Assembly (NCBI GenBank): GCA_024680555.1
Contig: JAILCC010000018.1
Location: 49,174 to 113,173, forward strand
Direction of reading: 5' to 3'
Origin: a bacterium
GTDB taxonomy: Bacteria; Cyanobacteriota; Vampirovibrionia; Gastranaerophilales; JAILCC01
DNA: 64,000 nucleotides
Numbering within the stretch: the stretch's first letter is position 1; the number at the start of each line of letters is the position of its first letter. Below, piece by piece: positions 13,197-56,353 of this stretch. The notes under the pieces were generated by a model that was not told the DNA's origin, searched no databases, and was given only the letters and a program-made list of their open reading frames with translations. Both the position numbers and the translations under genes were made by a program.

Positions 13197-13411
13197 GATT
13201 TTCTTCCATTCCATAGAATTATTCACAGAGACGTGCTGGGTTCGCTAGGCTCACACGGCGCACTTGCCAAAATCCGCTTCTTGGATTATTGGCAGTTCAT
13301 AATTCTTCATTCCATTTCAGAAAATCAGGAGATTTTCTTCCATTCCATAGAATTATTCACAGAGACGTGCTGGGTTCGCTAGGCTCACACGGCGCACTAG
13401 CCAAAATCCGC
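13197..13411 (-). repeat. Interspersed repeat family, locus A: one full and one truncated Y unit (minus-strand orientation)
   Basis: Two copies with a 134-bp period. The reverse complement matches the Y units at 30578-30711 and 46207-46451. The first base coincides with the last base of the rel stop codon. Confidence 0.9.
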
Positions 13412-15573
13412 TACTTGCGTTTGCTGCTATTTTGTGACGAGTGAGTTCGTTTAACAGAAATGACTTCCGGCATTGCTTCGATAGAGTTCATAATTCTTGT
13501 TAAACTGTCTATGTCTTGAACTTCTAAGCCCAATTCAATAATGCCTTTTTTGCCGTATCTTGTAAAGCCGTTTGCAAAGGCGATGTTAATTTTGTTGTCC
13601 GTAACTTTTGTCAAAATTTGTTGTAAAATACCGATTTTATCTTCAGTCTCAATTTTAATCGGAACGACATAAGTTTTGTTGAGGTGAACTTCTGCCCAAC
13701 TGATTTTCATGAGCCTTTCTTCGGGAATTTCCTTTAAAGTAGGGCAATCCGCTCTATGAACGCTGACACCCCTGCTTCTTGTTATTGCTCCGACTATAGG
13801 TTCGCCCGGAATTGGAGTGCAGCATTTAGAAATGTGGTATAGCATACCTTCTAAACCGATGATATCTTTTGCGCCCGATTTGGATTTGCCGGTTGTTTTT
13901 ATAACAATGTCGCCGCCTTTATCAAGTTTTTTAAGTTTATTTATAACTTTGTGGGTGGAAGTTTCGCCGTATCCTATTGCGGCAAACAAATCTTCTTGAG
14001 AAGTGAAATTCAAGTCTTTTGCAATTCTTTCAAATTCACCGATATTTTCATATTCATCAAAATGCGCTTTTGATATTTCGTGTTCAAGCATTTCTTTGCC
14101 GAGGGTAATATATTCATCACGTTTATTCTTTTTGAACCAGAGTTTTATTTTTGATTTAGCTGCGTTTGTGGCGCAAATATTTATCCAATCCCATTTTGGA
14201 TTGGGTGTCTTTGCCGTGATAATTTCAACAATATCACCAGTGAAAAGTTTTGTTTCCAACGGAACAATTCTGCCGTTGATTTTTGCGCCGACGGTTTTGT
14301 GTCCGACTTGCGTGTGTACACGGTACGCAAAGTCGATTGGTGTTGCTCCGCTCGGTAAGTCGATAACGTCTCCCATCGGAGTGAATACAAATACTTGGTC
14401 TGAGAATAGGTCTAATTTTACTAAATCAACGTATTCTTTTGCATCTTTTGCATTTTCCTGTACTTCTGCAAGTTTTCTGAGCCATGTGAATTTTTTATCA
14501 GCTTCCGTAACTTTTACGGAGCCTGCTTCTTTGTATTTCCAGTGTGCAGCAATACCAAATTCCGCTTCTTCATGCATCTGCTGCGTACGAATTTGAATTT
14601 CAACAGGTTTACCTTTAGGACCTATTACAGATGTGTGCAAAGAGCGGTAGAGGTTGCTTTTGGGCATTGCTATGTAGTCTTTAAATCTGCCGGGGATGGG
14701 TTTAAAAATAGAGTGAATTATACCTAAAACTCCATAGCAGTCACGCAAGTTATCAACAATTACACGGACAGCAATTATGTCGAAGAGCTCGTGATAATCT
14801 TTTTGCTGACGTTTCATTTTTGCATAAATACTGTAGTAGTGCTTTGCTCTGCCGTTGATTTTTGCCTTAATATCGGCTTTTTGCAGAGAAAGTTGAATTG
14901 TTTCTATTAATGTCTGTACAACTTCATCTCTTTCGGCTTTTGTTTGAGCTACATTCTTAACTACTTCATAATATTTTTCGGGTTCGGTATATCTGAGCGA
15001 TAAATCTTCAAGCTCTGCTTTGATACGTCCGATACCGAGACGGTTTGCCAAAGGTGCAAATATTTCAAGGGTTTCTTGCGCAATGCGTTTTTGTTTTTGA
15101 ATAGGCATGTGATTAAGAGTACGCATATTATGTAATCTGTCTGCGAGTTTTAATAAAATTACCCTTACGTCTTCCGCCATAGATACAAACATTTTTCGGA
15201 AGTTTTCTGCTTGTCTGTCCTCTTTGGACTTAAATTCCAATTTCCCTAATTTTGTTACGCCGTTAACAAGCTTCAAAACTTCTTCGCCAAATTTTTCCTT
15301 AATTTCGTCTGCCGTAACCTCTGTATCTTCAAGTACATCGTGCAATAGAGATGCCATAATTGTAGGAGTGTCCGCCTTAAACTCCGCAAGAATTTTAGCA
15401 ACTTCAACAGGGTGAATGATATAGGGTTCTTCGCTGGCACGGTACTGACCTTCGTGCTTGGCAGCAGCGTATTCATACGTTTCCCTTATTTTATCAATGT
15501 CCTCTTGCGAGCGACCTTGTTTTTTTAATATAATTTCAAGAGGTTCAAATATATTTGCCGGCATGGATTTCAC
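13411..15573 (-). CDS. rel: Bifunctional (p)ppGpp synthetase/hydrolase (RelA/SpoT homologue)
   Basis: HD hydrolase motif (HPVEVA...LLHDVLEDT), RelA/SpoT synthetase region (YRSLHTSV), TGS and ACT-like C-terminus. Confidence 0.92.
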   Translation of the reverse strand: MKSMPANIFEPLEIILKKQGRSQEDIDKIRETYEYAAAKHEGQYRASEEPYIIHPVEVAKILAEFKADTPTIMASLLHDVLEDTEVTADEIKEKFGEEVLKLVNGVTKLGKLEFKSKEDRQAENFRKMFVSMAEDVRVILLKLADRLHNMRTLNHMPIQKQKRIAQETLEIFAPLANRLGIGRIKAELEDLSLRYTEPEKYYEVVKNVAQTKAERDEVVQTLIETIQLSLQKADIKAKINGRAKHYYSIYAKMKRQQKDYHELFDIIAVRVIVDNLRDCYGVLGIIHSIFKPIPGRFKDYIAMPKSNLYRSLHTSVIGPKGKPVEIQIRTQQMHEEAEFGIAAHWKYKEAGSVKVTEADKKFTWLRKLAEVQENAKDAKEYVDLVKLDLFSDQVFVFTPMGDVIDLPSGATPIDFAYRVHTQVGHKTVGAKINGRIVPLETKLFTGDIVEIITAKTPNPKWDWINICATNAAKSKIKLWFKKNKRDEYITLGKEMLEHEISKAHFDEYENIGEFERIAKDLNFTSQEDLFAAIGYGETSTHKVINKLKKLDKGGDIVIKTTGKSKSGAKDIIGLEGMLYHISKCCTPIPGEPIVGAITRSRGVSVHRADCPTLKEIPEERLMKISWAEVHLNKTYVVPIKIETEDKIGILQQILTKVTDNKINIAFANGFTRYGKKGIIELGLEVQDIDSLTRIMNSIEAMPEVISVKRTHSSQNSSKRK

Positions 15574-15924: not shown

Positions 15925-16098
15925 TTATTCTTCAGGTTGAAGTTTACCTGTTATACTTACGTGAGTTTCGCCAACTTCTAAATTTTCTATTTCTTCCTGT
16001 TCATCAGTGAAGAAAAATTCTGCCCTGGCGAAATCACCTGTGTTTTCACGTCTTTTTACTTCATAGCTTAATTTTCTTAAAAATTCCTTTATTGCCAT
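15925..16098 (-). CDS. Small hypothetical protein, 57 aa (below the ORF-track cutoff)
   Basis: My own translation: MAIKEFLRKLSYEVKRRENTGDFARAEFFFTDEQEEIENLEVGETHVSITGKLQPEE. AAAGGTGA RBS lies 6 nt upstream and a sigma-28-type promoter 42 nt upstream. Confidence 0.5.
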   Translation of the reverse strand: MAIKEFLRKLSYEVKRRENTGDFARAEFFFTDEQEEIENLEVGETHVSITGKLQPEE

Positions 16099-16139: not shown

Positions 16140-16167
16140 TTATCGGCAGTTTTGATGAAAAACTTTA
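16140..16167 (-). promoter_or_regulatory. Sigma-28 (FliA)-type promoter, TAAAGTTT-N12-GCCGATAA
   Basis: The minus strand reads TAAAGTTT (16167-16160), a 12-nt spacer, then GCCGATAA (16147-16140). Both octamers match the consensus exactly. Confidence 0.7.
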
Positions 16168-29744: not shown

Positions 29745-29778
29745 GTGGTGCGGAGTTTCGCACCACTTTTTGTTTTTT
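29745..29778 (+). terminator. groESL intrinsic terminator
   Basis: Stem GTGGTGCG/CGCACCAC, 6-nt loop, T-rich tail TTTTTGTTTTTT. Confidence 0.85.
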
Positions 29779-29811
29779 GTAACAATTCCTTAACAAAACA
29801 AATGAAAATCC

Positions 29812-29838
29812 TAAAGTTTTTTCGCATGCTGCCGATAA
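29812..29838 (+). promoter_or_regulatory. Sigma-28 (FliA)-type promoter, exact TAAAGTTT-N11-GCCGATAA
   Basis: TAAAGTTT at 29812-29819, 11-nt spacer, GCCGATAA at 29831-29838. ATG of the next ORF is 30 nt downstream. Confidence 0.75.
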
Positions 29839-45668: not shown

Positions 45669-45868
45669 TATTTTTCTATAGCAGCATTTAATTGTGCAAC
45701 CAATTCGTCAGGGTCAAAGCCATGAACTTTTGCACCGGCTTCAAGATTTTCAAATCTTGCTGCAGCACAACCGAGACACCCAAAACCCAATTGTCCGAAT
45801 ACTTCTATTGTTTCGGGGTATTGTTGCACTACGTCTAAAATACCCATGTCTTTTGTAATAGCACCCAT
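45668..45868 (-). CDS. DUF1858-like small redox/disulfide protein
   Basis: 'ILDVVQQYPETIEVFGQLGFGCLGCAAARFENLEAGAKVHG' resembles the hybrid-cluster-associated DUF1858 fold. AAGGAG RBS. Its stop overlaps the rsmH start. Confidence 0.7.
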   Translation of the reverse strand: MGAITKDMGILDVVQQYPETIEVFGQLGFGCLGCAAARFENLEAGAKVHGFDPDELVAQLNAAIEK

Positions 45869-45947
45869 TGTTTTCTCCTTAACTTTACTTACAACTACAT
45901 TATCCCACAACAAGTATTAAGAATTGTAAAAATATAGTCAAAAAACC

Positions 45948-45974
45948 TAAAGTTTTACAAAAAAATGCCGATAA
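45948..45974 (+). promoter_or_regulatory. Sigma-28 (FliA)-type promoter, exact TAAAGTTT-N11-GCCGATAA
   Basis: TAAAGTTT at 45948-45955, 11-nt spacer, GCCGATAA at 45967-45974. ATG of the 47-aa ORF is 34 nt downstream. Confidence 0.75.
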
Positions 45975-46008
45975 AAGTAGCATAAGGTAGTATATAAGGA
46001 GTTATTTC

Positions 46009-46152
46009 ATGACGGGACAACAATTTTATTGGGCTGGCACATATAGTTTTAAAGCCGAAATACCAATGTTTTTAAGAGCAATCAAAAAACAGATTGACGA
46101 AATTCTTGCCAAAATTGACAAAATGGACAAGGCGGCAGAACATCAGTTTTAA
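46009..46152 (+). CDS. Small hypothetical protein, 47 aa (below track cutoff)
   Basis: My translation: MTGQQFYWAGTYSFKAEIPMFLRAIKKQIDEILAKIDKMDKAAEHQF. Strong AAGGAG RBS 8 nt upstream and a strong terminator downstream. Confidence 0.55.
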   Translation: MTGQQFYWAGTYSFKAEIPMFLRAIKKQIDEILAKIDKMDKAAEHQF

Positions 46153-46179
46153 ATTTCCATAAAATTTTCCACATATTTT

Positions 46180-46206
46180 AGCCGACATTTATGTCGGCTT
46201 TTTATT
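46180..46206 (+). terminator. Intrinsic terminator of the 47-aa gene
   Basis: Stem AGCCGACAT/ATGTCGGCT, 2-nt loop, TTTTTATT tail. Confidence 0.85.
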
Positions 46207-46451
46207 GCGGATTTCGGCAAGTGCGCCGTGTGAGCATAGCGAACCCAGCACGTCCCTGTGAATAATTCGACGAAATGAAAGAAAATTGAAAGATTTTCTG
46301 AAATGAAGTGAAGAATTATAAACAGCCGATAATCCAAGACAGCGGATTTCGGCAAGTGCGCCGTGTGAGCATAGCGAACCCAGCACGTCCCTGTGAATAA
46401 TTCGACGAAATGAAAGAAAATTGAAAGATTTTCTGAAATGAAGTGAAGAAT
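46207..46451 (+). repeat. Interspersed repeat family, locus C: full Y unit plus 3'-truncated Y unit
   Basis: Y1 at 46207-46341 and Y2 at 46342-46451 are near-identical direct repeats and match loci A and B. Confidence 0.92.
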
Positions 46452-46586
46452 GTGAGGGATGTCGCCTTGGCGAGCAGAGCTATGGAGAGAAATTCTTCTT
46501 TTATACACACAGCACTTGCGATTTTTTTTTGTTTGTCTGATAATCGAGAATGTACCGTAATATAGTTATGACATGGAGGTAAAACC

Positions 46587-47123
46587 ATTAGCGAAGGTAG
46601 AAGCCAATCTCAATTAGGCATTGTAAATGAGAAAATCAGAGCAAAAGAAGTGAGATTGATTGATGACAACGGCGAAAATTTAGGCGTAGTAGAAACATCT
46701 AAAGCTTTAGAAATGGCTTATGATAAGGACTTAGATTTAGTTGTTATTTCCCCTAATCAAAATCCTCCGGTCGCAAAGATATTAAATTACGGCAAATTCA
46801 AATTCGAAGCTGAAAAAAAGGCGAAAGAAGCCAAAAAGAAACAAAAAACAGTCGAAATAAAGGAAATAAAGCTTCGATACAAAATCGACACGCATGACTA
46901 TAACGTTAGAATGAAAAGTATTAAAAAATTCCTTGAAGAAGGAAACAAAGTAAAGGTTGTAGTTATGTTAAGGGGCAGAGAAATGCAGCACTCGCATCTC
47001 GCCTTTGAATTGGCAAACAGGATTGTAGCTGATTTAGCGGACTTTCCTCATACGATAGAAAAGGAACCGTCTTTGGAAGGGAAAAACCTTCTTACAATAC
47101 TCGCCCCCGCAAATAGCAACTAA
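46587..47123 (+). CDS. infC: Translation initiation factor IF-3 (AUU start codon)
   Basis: The in-frame extension upstream of the track start gives 'ISEGRSQSQLGIVNEKIRAKEVRLIDDNGENLGV'. ATT at 46587 sits 6 nt after a GGAGGT RBS. A non-canonical AUU start is the classical IF3 autoregulation feature. Confidence 0.88.
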   Translation: MSEGRSQSQLGIVNEKIRAKEVRLIDDNGENLGVVETSKALEMAYDKDLDLVVISPNQNPPVAKILNYGKFKFEAEKKAKEAKKKQKTVEIKEIKLRYKIDTHDYNVRMKSIKKFLEEGNKVKVVVMLRGREMQHSHLAFELANRIVADLADFPHTIEKEPSLEGKNLLTILAPANSN

Positions 47124-56006: not shown

Positions 56007-56277
56007 GGGTGATTAGCGCCAAACCGGAGCAAAGCGGAGGTATATAGATTAAACCAACTGCGCTACAGAAAATAAAATTTGAAAACAGAATAATCGGGCG
56101 ATTAGCGCCAAACCGGAGCGCAGCGGAGGTATTTAGATTAAACCAACTGCGCGAGCGATAAATGAAAAATTTTGATAATTTAATATGGGCGATTAGCGCC
56201 AAACCGAAGCGCAGCGGAGGTATTTAGATTAAACCAACTGCGCGAGCGATAAATGAAGAATTTTGATAATTTAATAT
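56007..56277 (+). repeat. Three tandem units (89, 91 and 91 bp), each starting with the first 13 nt of tRNA-Val, immediately upstream of the intact gene
   Basis: Unit starts at 56007, 56096 and 56187; the tRNA starts at 56278. Each 57-nt core = GGG(C/T)GATTAGCGC + 32 nt + AACCAACTGCGC (an inverted copy of tRNA nt 10-21). An AT-rich spacer carries GATAAT 7 nt before the next unit. Confidence 0.9.
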
Positions 56278-56353
56278 GGGCGATTAGCGCAGTTGGTAGC
56301 GCATCTGAATGACATTCAGGGGGTCACAGGTTCGAGCCCTGTATCGCCCACCA
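56278..56353 (+). tRNA. tRNA-Val (anticodon GAC), CCA encoded
   Basis: Hand fold: GGGCGAT TA GCGC AGTTGGTA GCGC A TCTGA ATGACAT TCAGG GGGTC ACAGG TTCGAGC CCTGT ATCGCCC A CCA. Confidence 0.9.

Follow-up and report, generated by a model that had tools for sequence, protein, structure and literature searches.

A 47-residue protein gene behind a sigma-28-type promoter in Gastranaerophilales, a candidate accessory or regulatory component of a late-flagellar or export programme

Background

A 64-kb window of a Gastranaerophilales genome (the window being the whole stretch of DNA analysed here) carries, between the dcw (division and cell wall) cluster and infC, a 47-codon open reading frame (ORF) behind an exact copy of the promoter consensus of the flagellar sigma factor sigma-28. 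Whether so small an ORF is a gene at all, and what a promoter of this class should be doing in front of it at a distance from any motility gene, are the questions raised by this locus. Gastranaerophilales are uncultured gut relatives of cyanobacteria whose flagellar system and its regulation are known from gene inventories only; flagellar sets are complete in about 25% of their genomes, and flhB, fliI and flgG persist in the others (bioRxiv 10.64898/2026.04.24.720558; PMC4040986; PMC5877343). In the reading favoured here, to which a probability of roughly 0.5 is given, the segment 45948-46206 would be a self-contained monocistronic gene of the sigma-28 regulon, encoding an accessory or regulatory small protein of the late-flagellar or export programme of this order.

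A conserved promoter of the sigma-28 type

Promoters were considered as sigma-28-type when they followed TAAAGTTT-N11-GCCGATAA, as in E. coli, or TAAA-N15-GCCGATAT, as in B. subtilis (consensus sigma-28 promoters are tabulated in PMC4183435). The sequence at 45948-45974 agrees with the E. coli-type consensus at 16 of 16 bases, and exact matches to this bipartite 16-base pattern occur in the window at 29812 and 45948 only, against an expectation from base composition of about 1e-4 (our own estimate). When up to three mismatches were allowed, six matches were obtained against 1.66 expected, and none of 100 shuffles reached six.

Among the distinct loci of the protein family described below, the -35 element (TAAAG[T/A]TT) is present in 19 of 19, and a -10 element of the form nCCGATA[A/T/G] follows after a spacer of 11-12 nt in 17 of them; in every locus 29-41 nt separate the end of the -10 element from the ATG. 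Close relatives share the layout CTAAAGTTT-N11/12-GCCGATA[A/T/G], followed by the leader motif CATAAGGTAG and the Shine-Dalgarno (SD) sequence ATAAGGAG, and an AAGGTAG/AGGG leader motif is conserved upstream of the SD sequence across the family loci. A hairpin with a T-run lies behind the stop codon at the same place in most homologous loci, its stem sequence differing by lineage. In the window the hairpin (46180-46199) has an 8-bp stem with 5 G-C pairs and a 4-nt loop, with the T-run after it, and the terminator folds with -15.4 kcal/mol (z = -5.07 relative to shuffles).

The promoter was further compared in a distant set of five members, 33-50% identical and lying in wholly different neighbourhoods (L018, L022, L026, L024 and L020; Table 1). 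Members of only 33-50% identity that keep it in unrelated neighbourhoods include L003 (two large unknown ORFs before the gene), L018 (adjoining nifU/nifS), L022 (near genes for tetratricopeptide-repeat proteins and a histidine kinase) and L026 (near secDF and a penicillin-binding protein gene). When 291 kb of fetched DNA were scanned with a relaxed motif, the pattern was found essentially only upstream of genes of this family, the exceptions being the other two sigma-28 promoters of the window and one further gene of L018. Since the intergenic promoter is conserved while synonymous sites in the adjoining ORF are saturated (see below), selection is concluded to act on the promoter itself, and the gene is very probably transcribed from it.

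A sigma factor that could serve such promoters is encoded at 1236-2060 of contig L026. It belongs to the FliA/WhiG family (234.8 bits on TIGR02479, cut-off 189.6), and the family member of the same contig lies about 8 kb downstream of its gene, with several unrelated genes between them. Homologues of this sigma factor at 80-88% identity are plentiful in the database, and the small number with a name are labelled FliA, fliA/whiG family or RNA polymerase sigma factor (Clostridium sp. CAG:967).

All parts of the unit listed in a preliminary description of this DNA, made from its letters only (promoter at 45948-45974 with an 11-nt spacer, AAGGAG, 47-codon ORF, terminator at 46180-46206), were recovered where it had placed them, and its view of a complete unit of promoter, ribosome-binding site, ORF and terminator is borne out by the conservation of promoter, SD sequence and terminator with the gene across contexts. 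The same description had counted this as the second exact sigma-28 promoter, which holds for the N11 pattern, of which there are exactly two copies; the window has three promoters of the sigma-28 type when a third, with an N12 spacer, is included.

A protein gene under purifying selection

Using a word-indexed search, 16 close homologues of the 47-aa (amino acid) protein were found (60-96% identical, 45-60 aa), in which the segment F6-K15 is nearly invariant. A search of species-representative genomes gave three matches, two in Candidatus Gastranaerophilales metagenome-assembled genomes (MAGs) and one in an "uncultured bacterium". An exhaustive profile search brought the family to 42 clusters at 50% identity, and a second indexed search to about 198 clusters at 90% identity; members are almost all of 41-50 aa. 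Those that are named come from Gastranaerophilales, Gastranaerophilaceae, "Clostridium sp. CAG:306" or an unclassified "bacterium", and as far as these matches tell, the family is confined to the Gastranaerophilales, non-photosynthetic cyanobacteria of the gut. There is one copy per locus, and paralogues looked for in the loci were not found. A 710-aa tandem-repeat protein from outside the window (P0020) also matches the family profile, in ten repeats (…QPFWTGSYKWSEVPLFLPAILD…, E 4e-9). It was not accepted as a member, the match being judged a spurious low-complexity resemblance to the W-x-G-x-Y…F-L core and the protein probably a translated repeat.

The ORF had been described as unannotated. 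It was indeed missing from the ORF track used at that stage, which had a 60-aa cut-off, but it is in GenBank as MCR4881434.1 (K6A44_05720, "MAG: hypothetical protein [bacterium]", on a contig of 135,787 nt).

DNA was recovered for 17 loci, and selection was assessed on 14 distinct coding sequences over 36 gap-free codons. The mean proportion of synonymous differences (pS) is 0.67, essentially saturated, against 0.15 for nonsynonymous differences (pN); between the coding sequences of the window and of L010 the values are 0.76 and 0.02. Variable columns at codon positions 1, 2 and 3 number 18, 8 and 33 of 36. The ATG is kept in all loci and the (A)TAAGGAG SD sequence in nearly all homologous ones. 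The ratio of pS to pN, together with the pattern over codon positions, points to a translated ORF under strong purifying selection, and on this comparison of coding sequences the 47-codon ORF is almost certainly a real protein gene. A homologue search with a test of conservation against synonymous drift had been proposed at the outset as a check on the ORF, with the provision that a frame lost in relatives whose promoter and terminator were kept would point to a small regulatory RNA (sRNA). The opposite was observed, the frame being conserved under purifying selection, so that this ground for an sRNA falls away.

Predicted structure of the product

W8, G10 and Y12 are invariant in 100 family sequences, and S13, F14, K15, E17, I18, F21, K35, I36 and E/D37 are conserved in at least 90% of them. 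The N-terminus forms an aromatic head (W-x-G-x-Y-S-F-K-x-E-I), and the family signature reads M-Y-x-x-x-V-W-P-G-A-Y-S-F-K-x-E-I-K-L-F-x-x-(W/Y)-F-K-x-Q-x-D-x-(I/V/L)-L-K-K-I-E-E-T-E-K. In AlphaFold predictions based on 45 and on 100 sequences alike, a single 30-residue helix runs from residue 17/18 to 46, at a predicted local distance difference test score (pLDDT) of about 96. The suggestion that the product is one amphipathic helix after an aromatic N-terminus agrees with this model of a single long helix behind an unstructured aromatic stretch.

The heptad core of the helix consists of I18, L22, I25, I29, I32, I36 and M39, with Ile/Leu at positions a and d. In coiled coils, beta-branched residues at a and d favour trimers. 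The helix probably zips into a homo-oligomer, from dimer to tetramer, with the Ile-rich core favouring the trimer. The net charge of the product is about +1. Without a signal peptide, lipobox or transmembrane segment, it is predicted to be cytoplasmic.

The peptide and 45 members, scanned against Pfam and NCBIfam, gave sub-threshold, coiled-coil-driven matches only (CdaS_N, CutA1 and Rlip); a sequence-profile search of the PDB returned only GCN4-pII zipper adaptors, and a Foldseek comparison of the AlphaFold model with the PDB returned no match. In those parts of the supplements of a human-microbiome small-protein survey that were available, the family motif was not found. As judged from these databases, which leave the absence of a recognised family noted earlier unchanged, the family is without a characterised relative and annotated solely as "hypothetical". 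Two kinds of candidate were considered and set aside. The WXG100 family (PF06013) is a helix-turn-helix of about 100 aa with its W-x-G at the bend, whereas W8 and G10 are N-terminal here in a protein with a single helix and without a Pfam match. Ribbon-helix-helix proteins, toxin-antitoxin components and bacteriocins were excluded by length, by the single helix and by the lack of a leader peptide and, in every context, of a partner or processing gene.

Proposed role and competing explanations

In the proposed scheme, RNA polymerase carrying a FliA/WhiG-family sigma factor would recognise TAAAGTTT-N11-GCCGATAA and start about 7 nt past the -10 element, giving a transcript of about 225 nt. The short unstructured leader and the strong SD sequence would allow efficient translation of the 47-codon ORF, and transcription would stop at the intrinsic terminator. 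The helix would then oligomerise and present its conserved aromatic heads to a partner, the protein being a subunit with an accessory or regulatory part in the flagellum or in the flagellum-derived export apparatus that these bacteria retain. The gene is placed in a late-flagellar or export programme because its promoter class is the only functional clue conserved family-wide; a functional tie to that programme is given about an even chance. This strongly conserved, order-restricted family is well suited as a candidate for an accessory or regulatory part still missing from the flagellum or from its secretion-only derivative.

Several observations weigh against this placement. No flagellar, chemotaxis or export gene was found in the window or within 3-10 kb in any fetched locus, and FliA was not found in the window either, L026 being the only place where it occurs among the window and the fetched loci. 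The -10 element is weakened in two lineages, L020/L021 and L024/L025. Residues 1-17, which include the aromatic head, are without regular structure in the AlphaFold monomer model (pLDDT 58-79), and oligomerisation is argued from the heptad pattern alone. The family seems widespread although most Gastranaerophilales lack complete flagella, so that the regulon may not concern motility, and the FliA regulon of E. coli is itself known to include the motility-dispensable genes flxA, ynjH, modA and ves (PMC4183435).

A possible, if tentative, alternative is that regulation is of the sigma-28 type while the protein acts outside motility (for example in the envelope, division or stress), the FliA/WhiG regulon being broader or repurposed. 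WhiG-type sigma factors, which are of the same family, control sporulation and not flagella. None of about 20 distinct contexts of the gene has motility neighbours, and the other two sigma-28 promoters of the window likewise drive orphan genes amid housekeeping genes, a 57-aa ORF upstream of relA/spoT and a 180-aa ORF after groEL. The same direction is indicated by the share of Gastranaerophilales with full flagellar sets (about 25%, bioRxiv 10.64898/2026.04.24.720558) when set against about 198 family clusters, and by the parallel with the four E. coli genes named above (PMC4183435). The promoter nevertheless matches the flagellar class-3 consensus exactly, and the score of the L026 sigma factor exceeds the FliA/WhiG cut-off. 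Members of the order that lack complete flagellar sets still keep flagellar export genes, and no positive evidence for another process was found. The protein could also be a functional counterpart of FlgM, a minimal factor of the anti-sigma or sigma-modulating kind whose helix binds FliA/WhiG and closes a negative feedback loop. Anti-sigma genes typically belong to the regulon of their own sigma factor, as flgM does with its class-3 promoter, and here no feature of the family is better conserved than the promoter. The conserved charged helix residues K26, K35, E37 and E40 hint at a surface for a specific partner in addition to a plain zipper; no paper in the literature searched links Melainabacteria with sigma-28, FliA or FlgM. 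Such a role is nonetheless unlikely, given the absence of FlgM similarity (probability 0.07% by hhalign against a Salmonella FlgM sequence; no match to Pfam FlgM, PF04316, at E up to 10 in 45 members), a length of 41-50 aa that is half that of FlgM (about 85-100 aa), and, in L026, a position about 8 kb downstream of fliA with several unrelated genes in between.

That the protein acts outside the cell, as a late substrate exported by the flagellar type III apparatus or as a secreted peptide of another kind, is quite unlikely as well. Small secreted proteins dependent on sigma-28 do exist, as Fed and Cia of C. jejuni. The product is small and without a Sec signal peptide, and the flhB, fliI and flgG genes retained in genomes without full sets have been given a postulated secretion role (bioRxiv 10.64898/2026.04.24.720558). 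Its N-terminus, however, is aromatic and strongly conserved, whereas the signals of type III substrates are degenerate and disordered. A stable coiled-coil oligomer would need unfolding for export, and no linked chaperone, processing or transporter gene occurs in any context. Much less probable is a transcript acting mainly as a sigma-28-dependent regulatory RNA, like MotR, FliX, UhpU and FlgO of E. coli, with an incidental or secondary ORF. Sigma-28-dependent sRNAs are documented (PMC10578931), the predicted length of about 225 nt and the strong terminator would suit one, and Hfq-type sRNA models of Rfam give sub-threshold matches over the terminator (best rseX, 34 bits against a gathering score of 50). 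Yet at gathering thresholds Rfam finds only tRNAs in the window, and in a permissive scan of 45850-46650 only sub-threshold sRNA models appear, latching onto the terminator. Amino acid replacements are suppressed where synonymous sites are saturated, and frame, start codon and SD sequence are kept across about 200 clusters. In 17 of 18 loci, moreover, leader and early coding region have less predicted structure than their shuffles (z from -0.6 to +2.2), and the 3' untranslated region (UTR) is conserved among close relatives only. A chance ORF beside a chance promoter-like string, for which nothing but the small size of the ORF speaks, is hardly credible when an exact 16-base match is expected about 1e-4 times and the order as a whole keeps promoter, ORF and terminator in combination.

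Comparison with known systems

The favoured reading, a small gene of a late-flagellar or export programme, calls for no new kind of system, orphan small genes of FliA/SigD regulons being a familiar kind of object. B. subtilis has small proteins dependent on sigma-D, among them DegR (60 aa) and YjfB (about 55 aa). Orphan genes of FliA/SigD regulons (E. coli flxA, ynjH, ves and modA; PMC4183435) likewise stand alone behind a consensus sigma-28 promoter, away from flagellar clusters, and many of them, like the present gene, are small, with a regulatory or unassigned function. The 47-aa family differs from them in being unrelated in sequence (no Pfam or NCBIfam match above threshold), confined to Gastranaerophilales and provided with its own W-x-G-x-Y-S-F-K-x-E head. 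With FlgM it shares the character of a small helical protein made from a sigma-28 promoter that could close a feedback loop on sigma; but the present protein is half as long and predicted to be a rigid heptad helix, whereas FlgM is disordered and folds on binding.

The E. coli sRNAs UhpU, MotR, FliX and FlgO (PMC10578931) resemble the unit as short sigma-28-driven transcripts with an intrinsic terminator. They are non-coding and derived from UTRs, while here the ORF is under selection and the RNA has no conserved structure. A precedent for an essential flagellar accessory factor of less than 60 aa is PflE, a 57-aa protein essential for assembly of the flagellar motor in Campylobacter jejuni (bioRxiv 10.1101/2025.04.02.646747). 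As a lipoprotein, PflE has a lipobox, whereas the 47-aa protein has neither signal peptide nor lipobox and is unrelated in sequence.

Residues 22-43 (consensus KEQIDE(I/L)LKKIEETEK) align with the GCN4-pII segment IEDKIEEILSKIYHIENEI of zipper-fused PDB constructs (E 0.018-1), with Ile/Leu at a and d in both. These constructs are engineered trimeric adaptors derived from yeast, and the resemblance is compositional and structural only. CutA1 (PF03091), in its C-terminal beta-hairpin and helix, offers a local Y-x-W-x-G followed by a helix, and 8 of 45 members match it below threshold (best E 0.0045); however, it is a ferredoxin-like protein of about 110 aa, all matches stay below the gathering score and the AlphaFold model has no hairpin, and membership in that family was rejected.

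Genomic context and other sigma-28-type units

Table 1. Features of the locus, of related units in the window and of the promoters in distant family members
Feature	Position	Strand	Remark
Upstream TTGTAAAA element	45924..45931	+	TGTAA core starts 23 nt 5' of the -35 element; candidate UP-like element or activator site
Sigma-28 (FliA/SigD-type) -35 element TAAAGTTT	45948..45955	+	exact consensus
Sigma-28 -10 element GCCGATAA	45967..45974	+	exact consensus, 11-nt spacer from the -35 element
Predicted short 5' leader	45981..46008	+	putative start about 7 nt past the -10 element
Conserved leader motif CATAAGGTAG	45981-45990	+	within the predicted leader
Leader segments CAUAAGGUAG...AUAAGGAG	predicted leader of the 47-aa gene	+	region of candidate CsrA-type site
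SD sequence AAGGAG	45996-46001	+	7 nt ahead of the ATG; read directly in the sequence
47-aa coding sequence MTGQQFYWAGTYSFKAEIPMFLRAIKKQIDEILAKIDKMDKAAEHQF	46009..46152	+	ATG 46009, TAA 46150-46152; GenBank MCR4881434.1
Rho-independent terminator AGCCGACA-TTTA-TGTCGGCT, then TTTTATT	46180..46206	+	hairpin at 46180-46199
Third sigma-28-type promoter TAAAGTTT-N12-GCCGATAA	16167..16160, 16147..16140	minus	sequence match
57-aa ORF MAIKEFLRKLSYEVKRRENTGDFARAEFFFTDEQEEIENLEVGETHVSITGKLQPEE with SD sequence	16098..15925	minus	MCR4881399.1, hypothetical protein
relA/spoT	15573..13411	minus	downstream of the 57-aa ORF
180-aa Gln-rich protein	ATG 29869, stop 30409-30411	+	under the other exact sigma-28 promoter (29812); MCR4881419.1, hypothetical protein
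66-aa DUF1858 protein	45868-45668	minus	CxxC motif
infC start, probably AUU	46587	+	SD sequence GGAGG 46575-46579; in frame with GTG 46650 of the ORF list
Array of two Y repeats	46207-46474	+	after the 47-aa gene
Array of Y and X repeats	30471-30849	+	after the 180-aa gene
Array of Y repeats	13411-13198	minus	after relA/spoT; terminator at 13190-13155
182-aa protein MGIAASQARYLYLTARQTNVEF...	32232-31684	minus	coiled-coil end
269-aa Gly/Ala/Ser-rich protein	31668-30859	minus	no matches
Three tandem copies of a 91-nt repeat	56007-56277		
tRNA gene	56278-56350		
L018 promoter			TAAAGTTT-N11-TCCGATAT
L022 promoter			TAAAGTTT-N11-ACCGATAA
L026 promoter			TAAAGATT-N12-ACCGATAT
L024 promoter			TAAAGTTT-N11-GTCGATAG
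L020 promoter			TAAAGTTT; -10 element degenerate only (GTCGTATT)

The neighbourhood had been described as lying between the dcw cluster and infC and as not one of motility, which is accurate: DUF1858, rsmH, ftsL-like and penicillin-binding protein genes lie upstream on the minus strand, and infC, rpmI and rplT downstream. A conserved neighbour gene was sought across the loci and none was found; the synteny with DUF1858-rsmH is limited to close relatives, and the gene that follows downstream is infC, a CHASE2 cyclase gene or mgtE, depending on the locus. The DUF1858 gene itself lies directly upstream of rsmH and co-oriented with it, at the head of the dcw cluster, in an arrangement that these close relatives retain. 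AUU, the probable start codon of infC, is the usual autoregulatory start codon of IF3.

Neither the 57-aa ORF nor the 180-aa Gln-rich protein, which follow the other two sigma-28-type promoters of the window, has a Pfam or NCBIfam match. At all three promoters a TTGTAA(A/C)A sequence lies 23 or 34 nt upstream of the -35 element (45924-45947; 29777-29811; 16191-16168 on the minus strand), at offsets about one helical turn apart, and AAAnCC stands directly 5' of TAAAGTTT. Such a placement of TGTAA has a chance probability of about 6e-8. In most loci homologous to that of the 47-aa gene, TGTAA recurs at an offset of 23, 33 or 34 nt. The sequence may serve as an UP-like element or as a binding site for an activator. 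All three leaders also contain a GG motif 10-13 nt past the -10 element (cauaAGGuag at 45981-45990, ugugGUcg at about 29848-29852 and cguaGGGaua at about 16129-16125 on the minus strand), which in the 47-aa family is conserved 10-16 nt upstream of the SD sequence and may act as a CsrA-type site or as a second standby site for ribosomes.

The 47-aa gene and the two other promoters would provide a first sequence-level handle on the FliA/WhiG regulon in Gastranaerophilales, one that combines the exact enterobacterial-type consensus with lineage-specific flanking elements. A more far-reaching and rather improbable proposal is that the family is the core conserved target of an undescribed sigma-28 regulon, marked by the helically phased TTGTAA(A/C)A, by AAAnCC 5' of the -35 element and by the leader GG motif. 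The protein would then be a minimal, single-helix oligomeric factor of a new kind, a feedback or checkpoint device acting directly on sigma or on the flagellar export gate, replacing FlgM-type control and retained even where flagella are reduced to a secretion apparatus.

Repeats named Y (133 nt) and X (115 nt) occur in short arrays, with units starting GCGGATTT. The preliminary description had reported an array of Y directly after the terminator of the 47-aa gene, and two copies do begin there, one at 46207-46339 and a truncated one of 110 nt from 46342. Both Y and X are absent from 27 of 27 related loci, so that the array is regarded as a lineage-specific insertion with no demonstrated link to the unit, and the Y repeat was rejected as a part of it. 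The spacer between ORF and infC is about 435 nt here and about 210 nt in L011/L013. All three arrays of the window lie downstream of a sigma-28-driven unit and co-oriented with it; the one behind relA precedes the terminator, unlike the others. The Y copies at 46207-46339 and 30578-30710 contain GCCGATAA without a matching -35 element, the copy behind relA reads GCCAATAA at that place, and the truncated second copy after the 47-aa gene ends before the site.

The 182-aa protein shares 33% identity (E 1e-17) with a 224-aa protein of L018 (1162-488), whose gene has a sigma-28-like promoter of its own (TAAAGAAT-N11-TTCCGATA), and it also matches a 250-aa gene of L018 (6965-6213) that is convergent with the small ORF there. 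In this group the helices at both ends are conserved around a variable middle, an arrangement like that of flagellin but without homology to it; Pfam and PDB searches with the 182-aa protein gave no match, apart from weak coiled-coil noise with FliH and paraflagellar-rod proteins. The gene of the 269-aa Gly/Ala/Ser-rich protein follows it. Elsewhere in the window, the three tandem copies of the 91-nt repeat abut the tRNA gene listed in Table 1.

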